Origin: an uncultured Candidatus Saccharibacteria bacterium
GTDB taxonomy: Bacteria; Patescibacteriota; Saccharimonadia; Saccharimonadales; JAGQNJ01
Length of the DNA stretch: 64,000 nucleotides
NCBI GenBank assembly: GCA_964590205.1
Contig: CAZPVO010000002.1
Span: 65,005 to 129,004 of the forward strand
Direction of reading: 5' to 3'
In this document: in pieces, positions 8,080 to 64,000 of the stretch
Layout: the number at the start of each line of letters is the position of its first letter
Position numbering within the stretch: the first letter of the stretch is position 1
Notes under the pieces: generated by a model
The model's database searches: none
What the model was told of the DNA's origin: nothing
The model's input: the letters and a program-made list of their open reading frames with translations, nothing else
Translations under genes and position numbers: made by a program

Positions 8080-8754
8080 ATGAGCAAGCGTTTCTTAATT
8101 ATTCTGGCCGTTTTGGTTGTTTTATTTGGTGGATTTATTTGGTTCAGCAAAGCCAAGAAGACGAAAACTTCAACAAGCGGTAACAGTAGTGCGCAGGCAA
8201 CAAACCATGTTTCTGGCGCAGGCAATAAAAAAGTAACACTCACTGAGTATGGTGATTTTCAATGTCCTGCTTGCGGCTCTTACTATCCTTACGTTGAACA
8301 GGTTCGCCAAAAATATGGCGATGATATTACATTTCAGTTCCGTAACTTCCCACTCGTCCAAATTCACAAAAATGCCATGGCCGCTCACCGCGCCGCCGAA
8401 GCTGCGTCAAATCAAGGTAAGTTCTGGGAAATGTACAACATGCTTTATAGCACACAACAAAACTGGACCGAGAGCAGTAACGTTAGTCCGATTTTGGAAT
8501 CTTACGCGCAACAACTTGGTCTTGATATGAATAAATTCCGCGCTGACGTTGCTAGTGAACAAGTGAATGGCACTATTAATGCCGATATTAACTCAGGCCA
8601 ATCACTTGGCATTACAGCAACACCAACATTCTTCATCAATGGCAAAAAACTCGATCCGACACCAGACCGCAGTGTTGAGGCGTTTTCAAAAGTCATTGAT
8701 CAAGCCATCGCCGAGGCTAACCCCGGCCAAGCTCAATCTGCGCCAGCTCAGTAA
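8080..8754 (+). CDS. membrane-anchored DsbA-family thiol:disulfide oxidoreductase
   Basis: N-terminal TM anchor and a thioredoxin-fold CPAC active site (FQCPACGSYYP). Size and layout are DsbA-like. Confidence 0.8.
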   Translation: MSKRFLIILAVLVVLFGGFIWFSKAKKTKTSTSGNSSAQATNHVSGAGNKKVTLTEYGDFQCPACGSYYPYVEQVRQKYGDDITFQFRNFPLVQIHKNAMAAHRAAEAASNQGKFWEMYNMLYSTQQNWTESSNVSPILESYAQQLGLDMNKFRADVASEQVNGTINADINSGQSLGITATPTFFINGKKLDPTPDRSVEAFSKVIDQAIAEANPGQAQSAPAQ

Positions 8755-8879
8755 TTAATAAACTGCTGCCACGAAGGACGCTTAGAGTACACTGGCACTC
8801 GCACTTTTTTTGAGTGCATAACTTTAATTTTGACAGTCATTGGGCTGCCCCTTTCTATTTTTTTATTTTTGTAATTGCA

Positions 8880-8929
8880 AACTGTCCAAACCAATAAGAC
8901 AGTTAAATTGTTTTTTGTTTTATTTTTTG
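8880..8929 (+). terminator. possible intrinsic terminator downstream of the DsbA-like gene
   Basis: 7-bp inverted repeat AACTGTC (8880-8886) / GACAGTT (8898-8904) with an 11-nt loop, followed by the T-rich tract TTGTTTTTTGTTTTATTTTTT. The stem is weak and AT-rich and lies about 126 nt after the stop. Confidence 0.3.
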
Positions 8930-9053
8930 TCTTCTACAGCTCGCGGTTTCCACCTGCTGCATCGAAGTGTACGCCCATTGTGACATAAGCATTTTACCTG
9001 TGTCAACCTTCGTTTCTGATTATGTTTAAAAACTGATATACTAATCGGTAATA

Positions 9054-55382: not shown

Positions 55383-56912
55383 TTATTGCACGGTGCTTAT
55401 AATGGTGTATTTGTTGCGATTAACGCCGGCATTATCGATAGCACTATTCATCTGATTAATAGCAATACTTTTTGTTAATGGATCATAGTCAAACTGACCT
55501 GTCGCTGGATTATAGGCAAGCGAACCAATATAAGGAGTGATGTAAATAACATTGCCATATGGTGTTACTGTCAGGATTGGATTGCTTTCGATTGCCAAAA
55601 CTTTTTTATCAATACTATCAGTGTCTTGTTTTGCACTATCAATACTTAGTGCAAATTCTTGTTTTTTGTTGTCCGTGACACTTACAATGTAGCCGTTCAT
55701 TAATGGCTGCATTCGGCTAAAGTTAAAGTCGCCGAGACTATAGTCGATGTAAGCTGTGCGCTGATCTACGTCAAACTTAAAGATAGCTTTTTGTGACTTA
55801 CTGGCGGCTAGAAGACCAGTCGGCGTACTTAGAATGCTATTGATATCGTAGACTTTGTAGAGCTCTCGTGGTTTTTTGCCGGCAATATCGTAAACAGTCA
55901 TAATGTTCGAAGAGTTAAGCAGGCAGAACTTGTTTGTTCCGCAAAATTGAGCACCAGATAAGTCGCCAGGTATCACAAAGTGCTTAACTGCGCCAGGTTT
56001 GCCGTAGTCGACTTCCGTTTGACCAGTTACGGGCGCTGCGCCAGGATTACCGCCAGGATTTCCCTGATAATATGCTGTTAGCAAAGTGCCATTACTTGCA
56101 TCAATGATATCTTGATTTGCCGAAAGACCTTTGGTTTTTGGTTTTCCAAGAGACATAGTAGTTGGCGAGCCATTAATATCTGAGTAGTAGAGCATATTAC
56201 TAAAGTCCGGCGAATATACCAAAAAACCTTTATCGAACGCTCGAACATTGTAAGTCGAATTAGCGTCCGCACCATTCAGTGCTATACCCTTAGCGTCGAC
56301 AAGATTAAGAACGTCTGATGCGTTGCCAAGTTTGTAAACTTTGTGTTGAGGATTGTCGGCGGCTGTTTTTATTAGAATGTAATTGCCACTTGGTGTCGTA
56401 AATGTTCCTTCGACCTGACCAAGCTGTCCGGGTATCGTTGGGTTCGTAACATAAGTTGGAAAATCTTTTGTCGGCGGTACGTGGTACTTAACGTCTTTAT
56501 ACATGCCGCCAGGACAACTATATGAAAAAGATGATCCATTAATACTGTCCATGCATTGTTCCGGACTTTTTCCTACAAAGACTCGCTCATGCTCGGGTAG
56601 CGGCTTGATTGTCACGGTAGTTTTTCTGAGGAATCCGTGTAATGATGTGACCTCCATAAAACTGTCGGTGCCATTTTGGGCAAGAACTTCGTAAGAACCT
56701 TTGGGCAATTTCTTCCGCACTGTTTTATCAGACGAATTAAACGTGAGTGTTTTCTTGTCACCTTGTTTGTATAGCTGATATGCATATTGTCCATTGCCAG
56801 TTTGGGTGAGTTCAATTCGGGACTGTTGGCTTAACCAAATAAGTGCATAGACTGCGAGAATAGCAATGACAGTAAGAACGATGTAACGCCTGTATCTTCT
56901 AGCATATTCCAT
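55383..56912 (-). CDS. membrane-anchored extracytoplasmic hypothetical protein (beta-rich), last gene of the T4SS-linked block
   Basis: N-terminal basic stretch plus TM helix (YIVLTVIAILAVYALIWL). The remaining ~470 aa are G/N/T/Y-rich with no recognisable motif. Confidence 0.5.
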   Translation of the reverse strand: MEYARRYRRYIVLTVIAILAVYALIWLSQQSRIELTQTGNGQYAYQLYKQGDKKTLTFNSSDKTVRKKLPKGSYEVLAQNGTDSFMEVTSLHGFLRKTTVTIKPLPEHERVFVGKSPEQCMDSINGSSFSYSCPGGMYKDVKYHVPPTKDFPTYVTNPTIPGQLGQVEGTFTTPSGNYILIKTAADNPQHKVYKLGNASDVLNLVDAKGIALNGADANSTYNVRAFDKGFLVYSPDFSNMLYYSDINGSPTTMSLGKPKTKGLSANQDIIDASNGTLLTAYYQGNPGGNPGAAPVTGQTEVDYGKPGAVKHFVIPGDLSGAQFCGTNKFCLLNSSNIMTVYDIAGKKPRELYKVYDINSILSTPTGLLAASKSQKAIFKFDVDQRTAYIDYSLGDFNFSRMQPLMNGYIVSVTDNKKQEFALSIDSAKQDTDSIDKKVLAIESNPILTVTPYGNVIYITPYIGSLAYNPATGQFDYDPLTKSIAINQMNSAIDNAGVNRNKYTIISTVQ

Positions 56913-56951
56913 ATTCTTTCCCCCTTTGCTTAATCCTCAATATCATTATGT

Positions 56952-59858
56952 CTACTTAACCTTTGTTCCATAGCCAGTTATGTAAGGTGCATCCAACGGT
57001 TGCTGAGACATTCGTACAGTGTCACCATCGTTACCACCAATAATAGTTGCGATGTTACCATTAACGGCTATCACGATTGCGACGTGTTGATTGTATGGCG
57101 CGATATTATTATCGTTAATTTGAATATCACCAGGTTGGGGTGTATAGCCGGCTTTATCATGATAACCACCATTCTTTTCAAACCAAGCTTTAACACCAGT
57201 AACAGACGCTAGCCTCCATCCGCCGCTTGTGCCGTCAGTAAAAGGAGTACCTGCTTCTTTGAGAACCCAGCTTACGAAATCGGCACACCATTCTTCTTCA
57301 ACTCCATCCGAATATTTCTTCTGACAGTCTGATCCCTTTTTGCAGTCTGAGCCGTGCTCGGCCTGTTCTTTTTTGGCTACTTCTACAATACTACTGGCGG
57401 CTCCACTACTCGAGCTGTTTGAGTCGCTGCAACCTCCCGACGAACCTGTCGGGCTACCAGAAGCTGCACCTGCACCCGAACCGTACCTGGCAAGAATATC
57501 CTGAGCAAAGCTAAGTCTAGTCGCTTCTCGCTCTACGCCAGCTCTTTCATACTCTTTCAGGAAGACATGTTCAGCTTCTTCAACGGTCGTTGTCTTTTTT
57601 AGATCATCCCCTGCTGCCTTTTCGTTTAGTGTGGAGTTTCCTTCCATTTGACGCCAGACCAAGTCAAGCTGAAAAGCTAAATCACCTGGGCCGGCAGAAG
57701 AGCCGCTGGCTTTATTGTATACATCAAGCTCTGGCAATATTTTGGTTCCAGGCGTAAATTGCACGATACCATAGCCTGCATTGCCCGGTGTGTCGCTGTC
57801 GCCGCCTGGAGTTGGTGTGTTCTCGACTCGCCGTGGGTTAATGCCTGACTCAGCTTTCATGTTTCCAAGAACTCCAGCAATTTTGAAAGGCTCTTTATAA
57901 CCATCTTTTGTTGCAAAGAAATTCCAAGCCTTTTGTTCATTGTCTGTGCCGGCTAATTGCTGGGCAGCACCACCACAGCAATCACTGGCTGCTTGTGAAC
58001 CACTCTGGCCATTTTTAGCTGCAAGAACTTTGTTGGCTGATGCCTGAATCTGGGCCTTAAGTTGTGGGTCTGCATTTGCGGCTGCTTCAAGCTTATCGAT
58101 AATTGTCTTGAGCTGTTTTTCACCACCAAACAGAGCAACATCGGTTCCTGCTTTAACGGCGTTAACTACGACGTCTGGGTTTGCCACATACTTCGCAACA
58201 GGCCCAAGAGAACCTGCTGACAAGTCATCTGTTACAACAACACCACCAAACTTATAATCCTTACGCAGTAAATCATACGCTGGTTTGCTCAGCGATGCGG
58301 GTTGGCCGTTGGTGAGACCTGGAACATTATAGTTGCTCATCATAACCCAGGCATTGCCGGCTGAAGATGCTAGCTTTTCGTAAGGCTTAAGGTCACTTGC
58401 TTTTAGCTGATCAAGCGCTGGAGTGTTACCAATTGTTACGTCAGAGTTAACGGTTGTATTACCAATACCTGGGAAATGTTTGAAGGTCGGAATAACCCCC
58501 CCGGCAGTTAAACCGTCGGCGAAAGCCTTAGCTTTTTCAACAATCACGTCAGGATTGTTAGAGAACGAGCGGTCAATTTTACCAATTGCATCACTGTTTG
58601 GGTTATCGATGTCAAGCACCGGCGCAAAATCTAGTCCAATTCCAGCTGATTTCATTTTGCTGGCAGCACCATTTGCGGCTGTTTTTACTTGATCCGGAGG
58701 CATTGTTCCCATCTGTCTGGCGCTGGAAGGCAGGATTTTCATACGGTCAATTTTTCCACCTTCTTCGTCAATACTAACGAGTGGCGCTGGGCTAAATTTG
58801 CTTTTGGCTTCAGTAATATTTGCCGGGTCGAGCATTTCATTTGAGAATTCATTCGTCACAAAGATTCCGCCGACGTGATAGGTGCCAATCGCTTCAATCG
58901 CTTCTTGTTTTGTATCGGTTCGAACAAATAATATCTGTGCAATTTGATCGCGCAAGTTAGTCAGATTTCCTTGTCCTGGTGGTGCGCTGGTTGGCTGAGA
59001 GGTTGGATCTGTCGGATTTGCTGGCGCTGCTTGGGCCGACGCATGTCCGTTAAACAACCTGTTAACTTTTGCCAGGAAATTTTTGCTGCCCTGGTCTTGT
59101 AAATATGACGCTGCACCGGCAGGCTTTGATGAATTACCTGTAAGACCATTTGTGACAAGTTCAATCAGTTTTATCTGCCCGGAGCTATTGGGGTGAATTC
59201 CGTCACCACCCAGCAGTTTAGCAGGGTCGTGTGTTCCGTCTCCGCCGGGATCAATAGCACTAGCATAATCAAGGACTTTTATTGTTCCGGCGGCGTCGAG
59301 TGCCTTGAGTTTTGTGTTCATTGGCACGACGTAAGGAGCAACATTACCGGCTGTAACGGCGATATTGACCCAGTATATTTGAGCCGATGAGTTGACGCCT
59401 TTAAACTTACTGATAATTGTGTCGGGATCATTGGATTGAATACCGCCGTTTGTACCTAGGGCAATCACAATTGCTTGGGCATCATGAATGGCGCTCTGGT
59501 CGGTATTAAAAGCATTTTCGCCAGTACCTTGTGTCCCAACCTGTGCAGCTGAGTCCTGACCAGGCGTAACCCACGAGCGCCCAACACGGGCACTAATGGT
59601 GGCGTTAGGAAACTTTTGTTTATAGGTTGTTGCTACACCAGCAGTTATAGAGTCACCTAAAATGTATACTTTTGCATCACTACTTAAAGATCCCGCGTCT
59701 GTTTGAACTGTTTGTCCACACTCTTTAGCGTAGTAGGTTGTATTGTGGATGACAGCATTAATGTCATCCCAGCTAATCGAAGCTCTTACAATCGGCACGA
59801 AGATAGCCAGTATGCTAAATGACAGGACTGATATAAATGCAATAAGTCGTTTTATCAT
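56952..59858 (-). CDS. 968-aa secreted multi-domain cell-wall hydrolase: SGNH esterase + GH3 beta-N-acetylhexosaminidase-like + phage-tail-type lysozyme + CHAP
   Basis: Signal/anchor MIKRLIAFISVLSFSILAIF. SGNH: VYILGDSITAG...GDGIHPN (59154-59672). GH3: SIDEEGG, KHFPGIGNT, VVTDDL (58014-58961). Lysozyme-like: AGVLGNMKAESGINP...GYGIVQFT (57474-57941). CHAP: EWCADFVSW...NQHVAIV (56955-57326). Confidence 0.8.
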   Translation of the reverse strand: MIKRLIAFISVLSFSILAIFVPIVRASISWDDINAVIHNTTYYAKECGQTVQTDAGSLSSDAKVYILGDSITAGVATTYKQKFPNATISARVGRSWVTPGQDSAAQVGTQGTGENAFNTDQSAIHDAQAIVIALGTNGGIQSNDPDTIISKFKGVNSSAQIYWVNIAVTAGNVAPYVVPMNTKLKALDAAGTIKVLDYASAIDPGGDGTHDPAKLLGGDGIHPNSSGQIKLIELVTNGLTGNSSKPAGAASYLQDQGSKNFLAKVNRLFNGHASAQAAPANPTDPTSQPTSAPPGQGNLTNLRDQIAQILFVRTDTKQEAIEAIGTYHVGGIFVTNEFSNEMLDPANITEAKSKFSPAPLVSIDEEGGKIDRMKILPSSARQMGTMPPDQVKTAANGAASKMKSAGIGLDFAPVLDIDNPNSDAIGKIDRSFSNNPDVIVEKAKAFADGLTAGGVIPTFKHFPGIGNTTVNSDVTIGNTPALDQLKASDLKPYEKLASSAGNAWVMMSNYNVPGLTNGQPASLSKPAYDLLRKDYKFGGVVVTDDLSAGSLGPVAKYVANPDVVVNAVKAGTDVALFGGEKQLKTIIDKLEAAANADPQLKAQIQASANKVLAAKNGQSGSQAASDCCGGAAQQLAGTDNEQKAWNFFATKDGYKEPFKIAGVLGNMKAESGINPRRVENTPTPGGDSDTPGNAGYGIVQFTPGTKILPELDVYNKASGSSAGPGDLAFQLDLVWRQMEGNSTLNEKAAGDDLKKTTTVEEAEHVFLKEYERAGVEREATRLSFAQDILARYGSGAGAASGSPTGSSGGCSDSNSSSSGAASSIVEVAKKEQAEHGSDCKKGSDCQKKYSDGVEEEWCADFVSWVLKEAGTPFTDGTSGGWRLASVTGVKAWFEKNGGYHDKAGYTPQPGDIQINDNNIAPYNQHVAIVIAVNGNIATIIGGNDGDTVRMSQQPLDAPYITGYGTKVK

Positions 59859-62800
59859 GGTGCATCCGCCGCGCAGTTTAGATGAAAATGGGCGCCTTTG
59901 GCTTGGGTGGTTGCAGGTGTATCAAGGTCAGCACTTCCACCTTTAGGGCGCATGATATCGTTAGCAGGACCTTTATACTGATCATTTGGTAATCCAATCC
60001 AGGACTGTCCTGGCAGAAGCGTCGCAGCATCTTTTATGAATTCTAGTGAGCGGTCATTGAAGCCGGAGTAGTCCTCGCCTGTCGGAACACCGAGATTGTC
60101 GATATTCCCAAGGTCAACAGCTAACCCGGCAGCATGTGGTCCACCACCGCCAGTTGTTTGCCAGATAGAGAACTTATACTTCTGAGCCAATTTTAGTATT
60201 ACGGCCAAAATAGTGCGCTTCATCTGAGGATTAAGCAAGTTAGCGCCACCCTGTATATTGCCGGTAGCTTTTATTTGTTGAATCAGCTCATCTGGAGTGC
60301 CTTGTGGCAAGTTTGGATCAACAAGCGAGGCGCTGCCTGAACCACTATCACCTGTTGGATCGGCAATATCATTCAGGTGGTCAAGTACGTTGTTATTTCG
60401 TTTTGAAAGCCGCCAGCGCATAACCATCGCTGGGCCAAATTCATTATTATCCTTGCCAAGGTTATGTGGTGAGCAAAGACCTCCATTTTCGTATACATTT
60501 CCATCTGAGTCGCGTTGGATGTCTCCGCCTGATAATAATTCACCCATGGTTTTCGTGAAGCACTCGTTATACTTCTTTTCTATATCACCTTCCTTGCCAG
60601 ATTGCTTAAGGATTACATCATTAGCAAGAGGGAAATAGGTTGGGTCATTTTGAATGGTTTTGAGTTCATCCTCAGACCAGCACCATTGAATATTATGATA
60701 GTTTGTATCAGAGTTATTATTATTGGCTTGCGCAAAAGCCATTTGTTGCTTGAATGGATTCAACGCACCAGCCAAACCACTGCTAAAAATCGAGGTGTTA
60801 AAGCGGCTGGCTGTACCTGCAAGCGTTTGACCAAACGTCTGTACGTTGGTTAGTTTTTCGGACATGCCAACACCCATATTAACCAGTAGCGAATCAGGAT
60901 TATCGAGAGCTAAGTAGCGCTGATATACACTCTCTTGACCTTTTTGATCATTGAGATAAGCTACATTGGCCTGATCACTTGACGCCGCTTCTGGTTGGGT
61001 GAGTGGTCGCCCATACATCATCTGACGACACATCTCATTACCGGCAAGGTTACCTCCTACATCTGCTGCATTGGCCAGGTCATCCTGCCGTAGCGTACCT
61101 CCTTGCAGCGCATCCAGGCGCGACAAGACTATAGTCTTAGCCAATATCGTCAATCCAGCTAATCCAGCTGCCTGTCCAAGCAAGTTAACGACGGCCTTTT
61201 TATTAATTATTGTTCGACGAACAGAGGCAATTATTTCCTTAGAAGCCACTTTCCAGGAACCTTCAGCAAGCGCGTCTGCCGCCTTCGAATCACCATCAGT
61301 GACAACAGCCAACGCTACTTCAATAACACCAATAGCTGCACCAACTCTCCAGTCAGCTACTGTATGGCAAACAGGCGAAACAACAGTATCAAATTTTTGG
61401 CCTCCAGGGAAAAGTGCGGCGAATAGACCAAAGGTTCCTCCGGCCCCAGCTTGAGGGCTTGAGACTTTGTCGGTCGGAACTGGTATATTCCGATTTCGGG
61501 CTCGTTGCTCTGGTATTGATGGACTAATGTCCCCAAGGGCACGATTGGTTGCCCCCACTGCTTCAGCAGTGGTCTTGCCAGCTTTTTGCTGGTCTGCCGC
61601 AGACTCAATACTGAAGAATTGTTTTATTGCCGTGCCACTTTGAGCATCAACAGTGCCTTGCGAATGCTCAACCGATCCATCGTAAATTGTGCACATTGCC
61701 AGAGCAACTTGGGCGACTGTTGAAAACGTCTCAACAGCATGGATTTTAGGATCATTAATTTGGCTTTCAATAGCTTTATCTGCGCCATCTGAGATTGTTC
61801 TCGAGGATGCATAGGTCTGGTCGGCTTTTTGCTTTGCTATTTCTGCCGGGTCTGTTGGTGCATTTTGCGAGGGTCCAGTTAGCGCTTCGGCACACTGCGG
61901 GTCAGCTATACATGCGTCTTGCTGTGCCTGTGCATCGGTAACTGCATCATCGATTGCCGGTATAACGCTACCTGTCGACGGTTTCTCATTGACTCTTTCG
62001 ACCCTGTTCTTGAGTTCCAGAGCATCTGCTGCGTTCTCCTTAGTATTAGTGAAATCTTTGCCAAACTTATCCCACCAATGCAGCTTAACGCCAACTTTTT
62101 CGTAGATTTTGTTGGCCACGGCACTACGAATAAATGTATGATTCGTTTGCATGGCATTATCCAAATTAGCACTGATTTCAGCACCAAATGTGATGTCATC
62201 TTTCGGAGTCAACGGGTTGACCTTGTTTTTCACTCGTTGCCACAAGTTCACCTTATCAATCGGTATTTCATTACCCTTTATGCGTACAGCTTCTATACGC
62301 TGATAACCACTCCACGTCGGTTCACTATAGACAAAATCGATGTCACCGGTTGCCTGCATGTTTTTAAACGTCCGTTCAGGTCGCCACTTATCAAGCTTGC
62401 CCCATGTATCACTGCGAACACCTTCATAAAAACTTTTAAGTTTACCTTTATCAGCTTCAGAGGCAGTATCGACGGCAATTTTTTCACCGCTAACTTCGTC
62501 CATACTTTGCCGAAATGCTCGACCTGTTCGGGCCATTTGAAAGCCGGCAATATGCTCGGCGAGGTTGGGGATCTTAAGCGTCGCAAATAGTATGATAGCT
62601 ACAAATAATAATATAGCCAGACCGCTTCCACCCAGGCCAAAACCAAAGAGAGCCTTCTTTTTTCCGCTACTTAAATTGGCGGCTCTATTGCTGATTTTAT
62701 TTTTAAAACCGCTCAAAAAGCCGCTTCCACCACCATCTTGCTGGCCACTGTCGCCAGATCCTTTGCCAGAAGCCTTTACTTTGCCAACAGCTGCACCGGC

Positions 62801-63058
62801 ACGTCTGTAGAAGCCGCCACCAGTTTTATCCTGCAAAGCCTCTTGTTCATTATGGGCGGGGCCAGCAGAGGGGCTTTCTTCATCGTAGAGGCCAGAGCCA
62901 TCTGCTTCTTTGAGCGCCAAATCAGCCGGGTTCGGTGTTTGACGGTTGGCGTTGTTGCGACGAAAATCCTCAATTGGAGGTTGATTCCATTGGTGTTCAA
63001 GACCATCTGAATCTTGGTCTTCTTCACTATCGGGTCGTGATGCTGTACCTGGTCCCAT
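59855..63058 (-). CDS. 1067-aa T4SS-associated membrane protein with disordered N-terminus and C-terminal LAS/M15-type metallopeptidase-like motif set
   Basis: About 145 aa of acidic/Gly-rich N-terminus, then a TM helix (GGSGLAILLFVAIILFATL) and a large central region with further hydrophobic segments. The C-terminus has GPHAAGLAVDL (HxxGxAxD) and GAHFHL (HxH). ATGA overlap with the downstream hydrolase gene. Confidence 0.6.
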   Translation of the reverse strand: MGPGTASRPDSEEDQDSDGLEHQWNQPPIEDFRRNNANRQTPNPADLALKEADGSGLYDEESPSAGPAHNEQEALQDKTGGGFYRRAGAAVGKVKASGKGSGDSGQQDGGGSGFLSGFKNKISNRAANLSSGKKKALFGFGLGGSGLAILLFVAIILFATLKIPNLAEHIAGFQMARTGRAFRQSMDEVSGEKIAVDTASEADKGKLKSFYEGVRSDTWGKLDKWRPERTFKNMQATGDIDFVYSEPTWSGYQRIEAVRIKGNEIPIDKVNLWQRVKNKVNPLTPKDDITFGAEISANLDNAMQTNHTFIRSAVANKIYEKVGVKLHWWDKFGKDFTNTKENAADALELKNRVERVNEKPSTGSVIPAIDDAVTDAQAQQDACIADPQCAEALTGPSQNAPTDPAEIAKQKADQTYASSRTISDGADKAIESQINDPKIHAVETFSTVAQVALAMCTIYDGSVEHSQGTVDAQSGTAIKQFFSIESAADQQKAGKTTAEAVGATNRALGDISPSIPEQRARNRNIPVPTDKVSSPQAGAGGTFGLFAALFPGGQKFDTVVSPVCHTVADWRVGAAIGVIEVALAVVTDGDSKAADALAEGSWKVASKEIIASVRRTIINKKAVVNLLGQAAGLAGLTILAKTIVLSRLDALQGGTLRQDDLANAADVGGNLAGNEMCRQMMYGRPLTQPEAASSDQANVAYLNDQKGQESVYQRYLALDNPDSLLVNMGVGMSEKLTNVQTFGQTLAGTASRFNTSIFSSGLAGALNPFKQQMAFAQANNNNSDTNYHNIQWCWSEDELKTIQNDPTYFPLANDVILKQSGKEGDIEKKYNECFTKTMGELLSGGDIQRDSDGNVYENGGLCSPHNLGKDNNEFGPAMVMRWRLSKRNNNVLDHLNDIADPTGDSGSGSASLVDPNLPQGTPDELIQQIKATGNIQGGANLLNPQMKRTILAVILKLAQKYKFSIWQTTGGGGPHAAGLAVDLGNIDNLGVPTGEDYSGFNDRSLEFIKDAATLLPGQSWIGLPNDQYKGPANDIMRPKGGSADLDTPATTQAKGAHFHLNCAADAP

Positions 63059-63101
63059 ATTACCCTTTTAGTTTTTACCCTTGCTTAGTTCAATTATACG
63101 C

Positions 63102-64000
63102 CTATACCCCTGGTCTCAACTGATTATTCAAATCAATAGTACCCTGTTCGCCGGGTGCACTGCCAATCTGCTCAATTTGCTGGATTTGCTCCGGATTACT
63201 GGTAATCAAACTTGTTTCCGTTGCACTGGCAGTAATTTGAATATGCACATGATTCTGACCAGCAAAGAATAATCCCTGGCCAACCGGGAATTGACTGAGT
63301 CGCTTACGTTCTTCGCTCGTGAGCTTAAACACATCAGCCAGCACATCAACCGCAGATGTCGATTGCTTAAGCAGAATTTGCATCGAGGCGTTAGCAACGA
63401 TTGCTCGCCCAAGCCGACTACCCATAAAGTCTTCAACGTCCTGGCTGATAGTAGTAACGCCCAGGTTATACTTACGTGCTCGCTTAGCGAGAGAGAACAA
63501 GAAGTTAGCCGAATCTTCGTACTTCATAAATTGCCAGGCCTCATCCACAATCAAGAGACGACGTTTTTTGTCTGTTTTTGTGCGATTCCAAATATAGTTA
63601 AGCGCAATATACATGGCGACCGGGCGCAATTCGTCTTCAAGGTCACGGACGTTAAAGACGATCATTTGATTATCAATATTGATATTTGACTGCTGCGAGA
63701 ATATACCCGCAAACGTACCACTAGTATATTTGCGTAACCTTTGAGCAAGCTGAGGACCAGTGTTGCCCATGTGCAACAATGTGTCGTACAAGTCAATAAT
63801 TGTTGGTGGCTGAGTGTTGTGAGTCAATGGATCCGCCGTAATGCCAGCCTTGGCGTAGGTTTCAATTAAGGCTGCGTCAAGATCAGCTTCTTCTACAGGT
63901 GATAAGGCTGGAATCGTTGCGCCAGACATCTGAGCTTGCGCGCCACCCATCATGAGTCGCAACAAACCATGCAGTGTTATCAAGTTACTTCGCAGCGGAT
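63102..64000 (-). CDS. VirB4-family type IV secretion ATPase, C-terminal part (gene continues past the right window edge)
   Basis: Walker B context RRLLIVDEAWQFM, then KYNLGVTTISQDVEDF and QILLKQ, typical of VirB4/TrsE/CagE ATPases. The frame stays open to position 64000. Confidence 0.8.
   Translation of the reverse strand, partial: PLRSNLITLHGLLRLMMGGAQAQMSGATIPALSPVEEADLDAALIETYAKAGITADPLTHNTQPPTIIDLYDTLLHMGNTGPQLAQRLRKYTSGTFAGIFSQQSNINIDNQMIVFNVRDLEDELRPVAMYIALNYIWNRTKTDKKRRLLIVDEAWQFMKYEDSANFLFSLAKRARKYNLGVTTISQDVEDFMGSRLGRAIVANASMQILLKQSTSAVDVLADVFKLTSEERKRLSQFPVGQGLFFAGQNHVHIQITASATETSLITSNPEQIQQIEQIGSAPGEQGTIDLNNQLRPGV

Follow-up and report, generated by a model that had tools for sequence, protein, structure and literature searches.

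The locus described here raises a simple question: does a type IV secretion system (T4SS) block lying head-on beside a replication origin mark the arrival of a conjugative element, or does it belong to an apparatus fixed in its lineage? The window, that is the whole stretch of Saccharibacteria DNA that was analysed, is 64,000 nucleotides (nt) long, and the block is seen in it from 55383 to 64000, on the minus strand, where it is cut by the window end. Open reading frame (ORF) analysis confirmed the four minus-strand genes listed by the initial annotation: a 509-amino-acid (aa) anchored protein (55383-56912), a 968-aa hydrolase (56952-59858), a 1067-aa protein (59855-63058) and the C-terminal 298 aa of a VirB4-like ATPase (63102-64000, in frame and with no stop codon up to the window end). 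The junctions are short or overlapping, as had been described, with 39 nt between the 509- and 968-aa genes, a 4-nt overlap between the 968- and 1067-aa genes and 43 nt between the 1067-aa gene and VirB4. From the sequence comparisons presented below, this block would be the origin-proximal end of a chromosomally fixed, vertically inherited Saccharibacteria T4SS that belongs to the Patescibacteria VirB4 clade, is related to MPF_FATA and is orthologous to SEML1_0004-0008 of Southlakia epibionticum, a reading to which we give a probability of about 0.88.

We looked at the ATPase in the first place. The best NCBIfam match of the fragment was to the 'VirB4-like conjugal transfer ATPase, CD1110 family' (conju_CD1110; 3e-44, 151 bits), a score that stays under the CD1110 cut-off of 325, as the window holds no more than 298 aa of the protein; matches to TraC-F-type (1.5e-29) and then to VirB4_plasma and VirB4_CagE followed, and Pfam gave P-loop_TraG (2.6e-15). 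A Walker B-like motif, LLIVDEAW, is present in the fragment. The full-length ortholog in L001, the genome closest to the window, is 91% identical over the part seen and reaches 365 bits against the curated NCBIfam CD1110 cut-off of 325. By its family matches, the window ATPase thus belongs to the VirB4 type and is related to MPF_FATA, which bears out both its initial naming and the description of the block as a Gram-positive-type T4SS. The initial annotation had also considered that the ATPase might prove to be FtsK/HerA only, a translocase without relation to type IV secretion. The full-length ortholog indeed matches the DUF87/HerA central domain weakly (1e-7); however, the top-ranking matches all belong to VirB4/TraC families, the ortholog exceeds the CD1110 cut-off, and relatives carry PrgI (VirB3), TrsD-like and TrbL/VirB6-like genes directly upstream, so that we regard this case as excluded for all practical purposes.

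The synteny comparison proposed by the initial annotation was then run on relatives. A scan with the VirB4 fragment, one genome per species, found a relative in 512 species genomes, and the locus comparisons were made on the best 80 of these 512, nearly all labelled Saccharibacteria or Saccharimonadales and 81-91% identical to the fragment. Sixty-three of the 80 loci extend to recF, the other 17 lying on contigs that end too soon. In all 63, VirB4 is convergent with recF-dnaN-dnaA, and the interval from VirB4 to recF (4.7-8.7 kb, median 5.7 kb) is taken up by ORFs that share the strand of VirB4 and whose sizes always follow one another in the same way: first about 800-1300 aa (directly after VirB4 in 61 of the 63 loci), then 350-1010 aa, then one or two ORFs of about 130-540 aa. 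The same layout is found in S. epibionticum ML1. On the other side of VirB4, TrsD-like, PrgI (VirB3) and VirB6/TrbL-like genes are found upstream in 52/52 loci, with constant order and strand. A relative from the JGI metagenomes, with precomputed annotation (the JGI relative), shows the whole arrangement, TrbL_3 - 558 aa - PrgI - TraC-like - VirB4 - 1065 aa (M23) - 988 aa - 523 aa, followed by convergent recF-dnaN-dnaA and then by rpmH-rnpA-yidC. We also observed that VirB4 is split in these genomes: a separate gene of about 296 aa (TrsD/TraC-like) encodes its N-terminal domain and either touches or overlaps the 638-aa ATPase gene at its start. This organization, at 8100-8990 and 8990-10906 in L001, is seen in the JGI relative too and is kept in 52/52 loci.

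Within this constant layout the genes do not evolve at the same pace. Between the window and L001, identity is 91% for VirB4, 82% for dnaN and 71% for recF, and falls to 51%, 47% and 46% for the 509-, 968- and 1067-aa proteins, respectively. The wall-protein genes diverge rapidly while the core and its position at the origin stay rigid.

These data bear directly on the initial question, for which the initial annotation had left two answers, a conjugative element or a lineage-specific fixed apparatus. If the block were part of a recently integrated ICE (integrative and conjugative element) or of a plasmid-derived island that landed beside recF, its VirB4 family (CD1110, TraC) would be a typical one, since this family is usual in ICEs and plasmids of single-membrane bacteria. 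The GC content of the block (0.467-0.471) is also some 4 points above the window mean of 0.428, and the locus runs past the window end, so that mobility genes may lie further on. However, the GC content at third codon positions (GC3) is 0.385-0.392 in the block for a background of 0.397 +/- 0.034; the excess is present only at codon positions 1 and 2, because the secreted proteins are rich in Gly and Ala, and is thus no sign of horizontal transfer. In relatives, the block is not richer in GC than its flanks. The absence of a relaxase, an integrase and a coupling protein from the visible 8.6 kb of the block, noted initially, was confirmed by a domain scan, and in L001 and the JGI relative the 10 kb lying upstream of VirB4 likewise yielded no relaxase, type IV coupling protein (T4CP) or integrase. 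No integrase domain was found among the scanned ORFs, and no tRNA gene in the 64-kb window or in L001. A published census reports relaxases near virB4 in only 15 cases (PMC12102498). Moreover, position and orientation are identical in the 63 recF-reaching loci and in S. epibionticum, and VirB4 is more conserved between the window and L001 than dnaN or recF. A GC3 at background level and a position fixed across species argue against a recent conjugative-element insertion, which we consider very unlikely; of the two initial answers, it is the fixed apparatus that the data support. For much earlier times, a passage of the entire system from single-membrane bacteria to Patescibacteria has been proposed (PMC12102498).

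The head-on orientation was the second feature that had drawn attention. The coordinates and the flanking genes bear out that the block is a neighbour of the dnaA origin region and that its transcription runs towards this region. On the plus strand are dnaA (51601-52974; Bac_DnaA 1e-71, with the N- and C-terminal domains also matched), dnaN (53213-54304; all three beta-clamp domains matched) and recF (54323-55375; Pfam SMC_N and AAA_23). Divergent from dnaA, on the minus strand, lie rpmH (51236-51373; Pfam Ribosomal_L34 5e-20) and rnpA (50883-51227; Pfam Ribonuclease_P 6e-20), and beyond them, on the strand opposite to dnaA, yidC (49878-50855) and a jag/KhpB-like gene (49356-49877). The order jag-yidC-rnpA-rpmH / dnaA-dnaN-recF is the canonical neighbourhood of a bacterial origin. 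The rpmH-dnaA spacer (51374-51600) is a candidate oriC, with DnaA-box-like 9-mers at 51456, 51488 and 51552, and five of the 20 one-mismatch DnaA-box matches in the window sit within 51456-53026, an interval picked post hoc for which about 0.5 would be expected. The dnaA-dnaN spacer (52975-53212, 238 nt) also holds a DnaA-box-like 9-mer, at 53018, and dnaA itself has another one in its 3' end, at 52920. In this spacer, an ORF of 66 aa shows no homology to the 81-aa ORF found there in the relative L082, so that oriC may have a second part here.

The GC-skew check that the initial annotation had called for was less telling. The cumulative GC skew shows no clean minimum or switch at dnaA, and in a regression separating replication and coding-strand effects the replication term, 0.018 (95% confidence interval -0.009 to 0.045), was not significant. 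The GC3-skew component flips sign across dnaA, from about -0.07 to +0.03, with only seven genes on the right side. Skew by itself thus does not confirm the origin; synteny and the DnaA-box-like cluster support it. As for the expectation that genes to the right of dnaA should be co-oriented with replication, its premise is not supported: in the 51 kb left of dnaA, the presumed leading strand carries only 52% of the coding bases. Between positions 1 and 51600, the genes switch strand in short runs. With almost no strand bias, a head-on orientation is no anomaly in the window genome, and the idea that it is one was rejected, on the 52% co-orientation as well as on the same orientation in every locus examined. 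The head-on orientation is real if the origin lies at dnaA, and it is ancestral, as the position at the origin would be too. Such a position might raise gene dosage, and the orientation would cost little in a slow-growing genome with so little strand bias.

At the recF end, the convergence described initially is confirmed, and its spacing has to be corrected: the stop codons of recF and of the 509-aa gene are 7 nt apart (55376-55382), the 8 nt first given being a difference of coordinates. Seven nt leave no space for a terminator. The sole hairpin followed by a T-run near the junction is weak, on the plus strand and within the 509-aa gene (55630-55655); promoter and terminator scans gave results at chance level. 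The junction is likewise tight or overlapping in relatives, and the overlap is 4 nt in S. epibionticum. A convergence this tight and without terminator implies overlapping antisense transcription between recF and the block.

We then studied the three genes that separate VirB4 from recF. The 968-aa protein had been called a hydrolase, and the Pfam matches make this call more specific. After a signal-peptide-like N-terminus come four domains, all encoded on the minus strand: an SGNH/GDSL esterase domain (aa 66-228, 59175-59663; Lipase_GDSL_2 8.8e-7, 30 bits, under the gathering threshold of 32.9), the N-terminal domain of a glycoside hydrolase of family 3 (GH3; aa 302-612, 58023-58955; Glyco_hydro_3 1e-51), a lysozyme-like domain (aa 639-790, 57489-57944; Phage_lysozyme2 7e-26) and a CHAP amidase/endopeptidase domain (aa 854-942, 57033-57299; CHAP 5e-10). 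The GH3 domain also matches the NCBIfam beta-N-acetylhexosaminidase model (2e-33), and its best solved relatives are 4yyf, 6gfv (LpqI) and 5iob (E 1e-50 to 1e-44), presumably all actinobacterial enzymes; by these matches it is a NagZ-type beta-N-acetylhexosaminidase. Actinobacteria are the hosts of cultivated Saccharibacteria, and this domain may have been captured from a host. For the lysozyme domain, a similarity to the tail lysozyme gp13 of phi29 was found (3csr, 5e-4). The protein as a whole is a secreted, modular peptidoglycan hydrolase and the counterpart of SEML1_0006. The complete architecture (SGNH, GH3, lysozyme, CHAP) is shared with the 988-aa protein of the JGI relative and with the corresponding protein of L081. 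Lysozyme and peptidase modules immediately downstream of virB4 are thus present in the window, and VanY, M23, lysozyme, CHAP, NlpC/P60 and amidase domains occur at the two positions after VirB4 in the 63 loci. Among 64 proteins examined at the second position, Phage_lysozyme2 was the commonest module (28), followed by CHAP (15), GDSL (12), NlpC/P60 (8), M23 and Amidase_3 (7 each), Glucosaminidase (6), and GH3, C39_2 and SLT (5 each). This position is a mosaic of peptidoglycan-cleaving modules.

The 1067-aa protein has no Pfam match. It starts with a disordered Gly/Ser/Asp-rich N-terminus, followed by a large exported body with invariant cysteines. The membrane protein announced initially does have a membrane anchor, a strong transmembrane segment at aa 145-163 (62570-62626, minus strand; Kyte-Doolittle 2.44); a second hydrophobic segment, at aa 622-640, is weak, and the protein is more likely single-pass than polytopic, which refines the initial description to a single anchor. 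The motif LKIPNLAEHI (aa 161-170) is conserved and overlaps the C-terminal end of the transmembrane segment, and its residues L161, I163, P164, N165 and I170 are invariant in the alignment of the homologs, of which P0002-P0011 are 28-50% identical to the window protein.

The C-terminal domain of this protein (aa ~905-1067, 59858-60346, minus strand) carries the motifs H975-x2-G-x-A-x-D982 and H1057-x-H1059, whose H, G, A, D, H and H residues are invariant across 23 family members. The domain is rare: a search of 1.84 billion proteins gave 25 representatives (E <= 1e-3), in all of which it lies at the C-terminus. One family member matches Peptidase_M15_3 (6e-5), and two related C-termini match Peptidase_M74 (7e-4). 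In a profile search of the PDB, five of the seven best matches, each aligned at the motif, were to M15 peptidases (T5 endolysin, VanY-like carboxypeptidases, ChiX), at non-significant E-values of 0.16-0.6. Earlier PDB searches with the single sequence and with a first profile were uninformative, and hhalign of the domain against VanY-type C-termini aligned only 15 motif columns. Taken together, these motifs and matches suggest that the C-terminus is probably an M15/LAS-type zinc peptidoglycan peptidase. Wang et al. report a Hedgehog/DD-peptidase fold at the same region of SEML1_0007, an essential protein of 1113 aa (PMC10633639), which by the published gene table is the positional counterpart of the 1067-aa protein. 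The seven nearest full-length homologs all end in M23, and in the window protein and in L046 the rare M15-like module is found instead, which amounts to a C-terminal module swap. At the first position after VirB4 as a whole, VanY C-termini were counted in 16 of 46 proteins and M23 in 2 of 46. The M15-like domain also terminates proteins of about 600 aa with lysozyme or GDSL domains. Since it occurs in both kinds of protein, peptidase modules pass from one hydrolase gene of the locus to the other.

The 509-aa protein, anchored and exported, has one N-terminal transmembrane helix (aa 10-28). Its AlphaFold2 model (mean predicted local distance difference test score, pLDDT, 68.7; predicted template-modelling score, pTM, 0.61) shows a small beta-sandwich and then a beta-propeller (aa ~166-460), for which Foldseek returned generic WD40/propeller matches only from the PDB. 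Homologs are 29-60% identical, and in relatives the last gene or genes of the block frequently encode PEGA or Big_5 domains. The beta-propeller protein is a candidate binding or scaffolding component.

Do these three genes belong to the secretion system at all? They could form an independent operon for wall remodelling or daughter-cell separation, adjacent to VirB4 through genome compaction. Three observations would fit such an operon: the modules are common ones for peptidoglycan hydrolases, the genes vary far more than those of the T4SS core, and in a published survey most canonical VirB1 homologues were found without association to virB4 (PMC12102498). Against this, the three genes are co-directional with VirB4 and separated from it and from each other by no more than 43 nt, with an overlap of 4 nt and a second gap of 39 nt, and their position is kept in 63/63 loci. 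In pCF10-type systems, the gene after virB4 encodes PrgK, a membrane-anchored multi-hydrolase, at the equivalent place. Finally, in S. epibionticum both the T4SS core and the counterparts of these genes are essential, and the counterparts are counted in the T4SS (PMC10633639). We thus find an independent wall operon improbable, and keep the three genes within the fixed T4SS.

How such a system might work can be proposed from its relatives and analogues. The rest of the machine (TrsD-like, PrgI/VirB3 and VirB6-like genes) would lie just past base 64000, as it does in relatives, and an NTF2/VirB8-like protein and VirB2-like pilins are probably found past this base too. By analogy, the two hydrolase proteins would play the role of VirB1/PrgK, opening the peptidoglycan of the cell's own wall for a channel or pilus, and perhaps also that of the host bacterium where the two cells touch. 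Adaptation to host wall chemistry may then explain why they diverge so fast and shuffle their modules. As no relaxase or coupling protein is found in the visible part of the cluster or in the flanks of relatives, protein movement or host contact and uptake are likelier than DNA conjugation.

Instead of serving for protein movement or contact, the machine could still transport DNA, by unconventional conjugation or by a Ced-like import. Conjugation is the ancestral function of VirB4 systems, the ATPase shows a weak NCBIfam similarity to CedB and CedD, archaeal DNA-import ATPases, and Saccharibacteria lack de novo nucleotide synthesis (PMC10633639). However, the CedB and CedD scores are far under those of VirB4/TraC, and relaxase and T4CP genes are missing from the visible part of the cluster, from the flanks in relatives and, in the published census, generally from the vicinity of virB4 (PMC12102498). 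The same source indicates that the distant t4cp homologue of S. epibionticum is non-essential while its T4SS is essential, and loss of comEC-dependent DNA uptake leaves viability unaffected (PMC12857230). We therefore consider a DNA transporter unlikely.

A more ambitious proposal would give the three virB4-recF genes a role beyond aiding assembly and make them a module for breaching the host wall and harvesting from it, with a domain content that tracks host wall chemistry; further, the recF junction would couple T4SS expression to transcription at the origin. If this were true, the hydrolase of the window lineage would have gained SGNH and a NagZ/LpqI-type GH3 domain, and its giant protein would have swapped M23 for the M15-like module. 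We hold this proposal to be doubtful.

Several points weigh against our interpretation of the block as one end of a fixed T4SS. The window holds only the C-terminal 47% of VirB4, and the remaining T4SS genes are inferred from relatives. The best-80 VirB4 loci sample one part of Saccharibacteria and not the whole phylum. The peptidase assignment of the 1067-aa C-terminus rests on motifs and sub-significant profile matches, and the AlphaFold2 model of this protein, built on an 11-sequence alignment, is unusable (mean pLDDT 39.9). The link of the 509-aa protein to the T4SS is its position only, and its positional counterparts SEML1_0004/0005 fall outside the range given for the T4SS by Wang et al., 0006-0019 (PMC10633639). 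Lastly, the T4SS substrate and the target of the hydrolases, own or host wall, are putative in any species.

Attachment to host bacteria is the way of life of cultivated Saccharibacteria and probably of many other Patescibacteria. Few machines have been shown to be essential for this epibiotic lifestyle, and in the one species tested genetically the T4SS is one of them; the link with a host-associated lifestyle made by the initial annotation is found in the literature (PMC10633639, PMC12102498). What the 63 species add is that the core and the position at the origin are rigid and that the wall-degrading accessory proteins freely exchange modules. The variable wall-protein cassette is the likeliest place in which to seek host-specificity determinants.

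This kind of system has been described before, as has its location next to dnaA, and the window copy is an ordinary new instance of it; the additions made here are small: a count of the domains found in the variable cassette, the GH3 and M15-like modules, and a convergence with recF that has no terminator. The closest described system is the 'apparent T4SS (SEML1_0006-0019)' of S. epibionticum, essential by transposon sequencing (Tn-seq) (Wang et al. 2023, PMC10633639). It is most like Gram-positive conjugative systems, has no recognisable relaxase or coupling protein and has a pilin array (PMC10633639). On its plus strand are dnaA (SEML1_0001), dnaN (0002) and recF (0003), the last overlapping 0004 by the 4 nt already mentioned; on the minus strand follow 0004 (249 aa), 0005 (PEGA, exported), 0006 (643 aa, two lysozyme-like domains and a Cys protease, PF18013 and PF01832), 0007 (1113 aa, with the C-terminal Hedgehog/DD-peptidase fold), 0008 (VirB4), 0009, 0010 (PrgI), 0011, 0012 (NTF2-like) and 0013 (VirB6-like), with the pilin array 0014-0019 past the VirB6-like gene (PMC10633639). 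SEML1_0004-0011 are essential at later Tn-seq time points (supplement of PMC10633639). By gene table rather than by sequence comparison, the likeness extends over the small exported protein or proteins convergent with recF, the lysozyme/Cys-peptidase hydrolase, the protein of about 1100 aa and VirB4, as well as over the TrsD-like, PrgI and VirB6-like genes beyond VirB4, which the window's relatives also have; relaxase and T4CP are missing from the S. epibionticum cluster as from the visible part of the window. The differences are that SEML1_0006 combines glucosaminidase, lysozyme and Cys-protease domains in 643 aa, whereas the 968-aa protein of the window adds SGNH and GH3, that the block ends with one anchored beta-propeller protein of 509 aa instead of two small proteins (prealbumin-like, PEGA), and that essentiality is known for S. 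epibionticum only.

In the survey of Quinonero-Coronel et al. 2025, these VirB4 form a Patescibacteria clade related to MPF_FATA, TrsD, PrgI/VirB3 and VirB6 genes accompany virB4 while relaxases are rare, and non-canonical glycosidases and peptidases lie downstream of virB4 (PMC12102498). There, dnaA and dnaN are abundant near virB4, with a gene-dosage benefit proposed, whereas the head-on orientation, the recF convergence and a two-position domain census are not discussed in the sections consulted (PMC12102498). Pilin arrays are reported for Patescibacteria systems (PMC12857230, PMC12102498), and a 2025 review covers the same system and points (PMC12857230).

With the conjugative systems of Gram-positive bacteria (pCF10 Prg/Pcf, pIP501 Tra, ICEBs1, CTn2), the block shares its VirB4 family, for which CD1110 is the best model, and the gene order PrgI/VirB3 - VirB4 - membrane-anchored cell-wall hydrolase, the PrgI/VirB3 part being taken from relatives. 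PrgK, TraG (pIP501) and CwlT, the functional analogues of the 968-aa protein, combine a lysozyme or transglycosylase with CHAP or NlpC/P60 and M23-type modules. Unlike these systems, the one described here shows no relaxase, coupling protein or integrase in its visible part or in the flanks of relatives, and its 1067-aa protein has an exported region of about 750 aa without an assigned fold. All the species examined have the system fixed at one chromosomal place, by the origin, and two large proteins share its hydrolase function.

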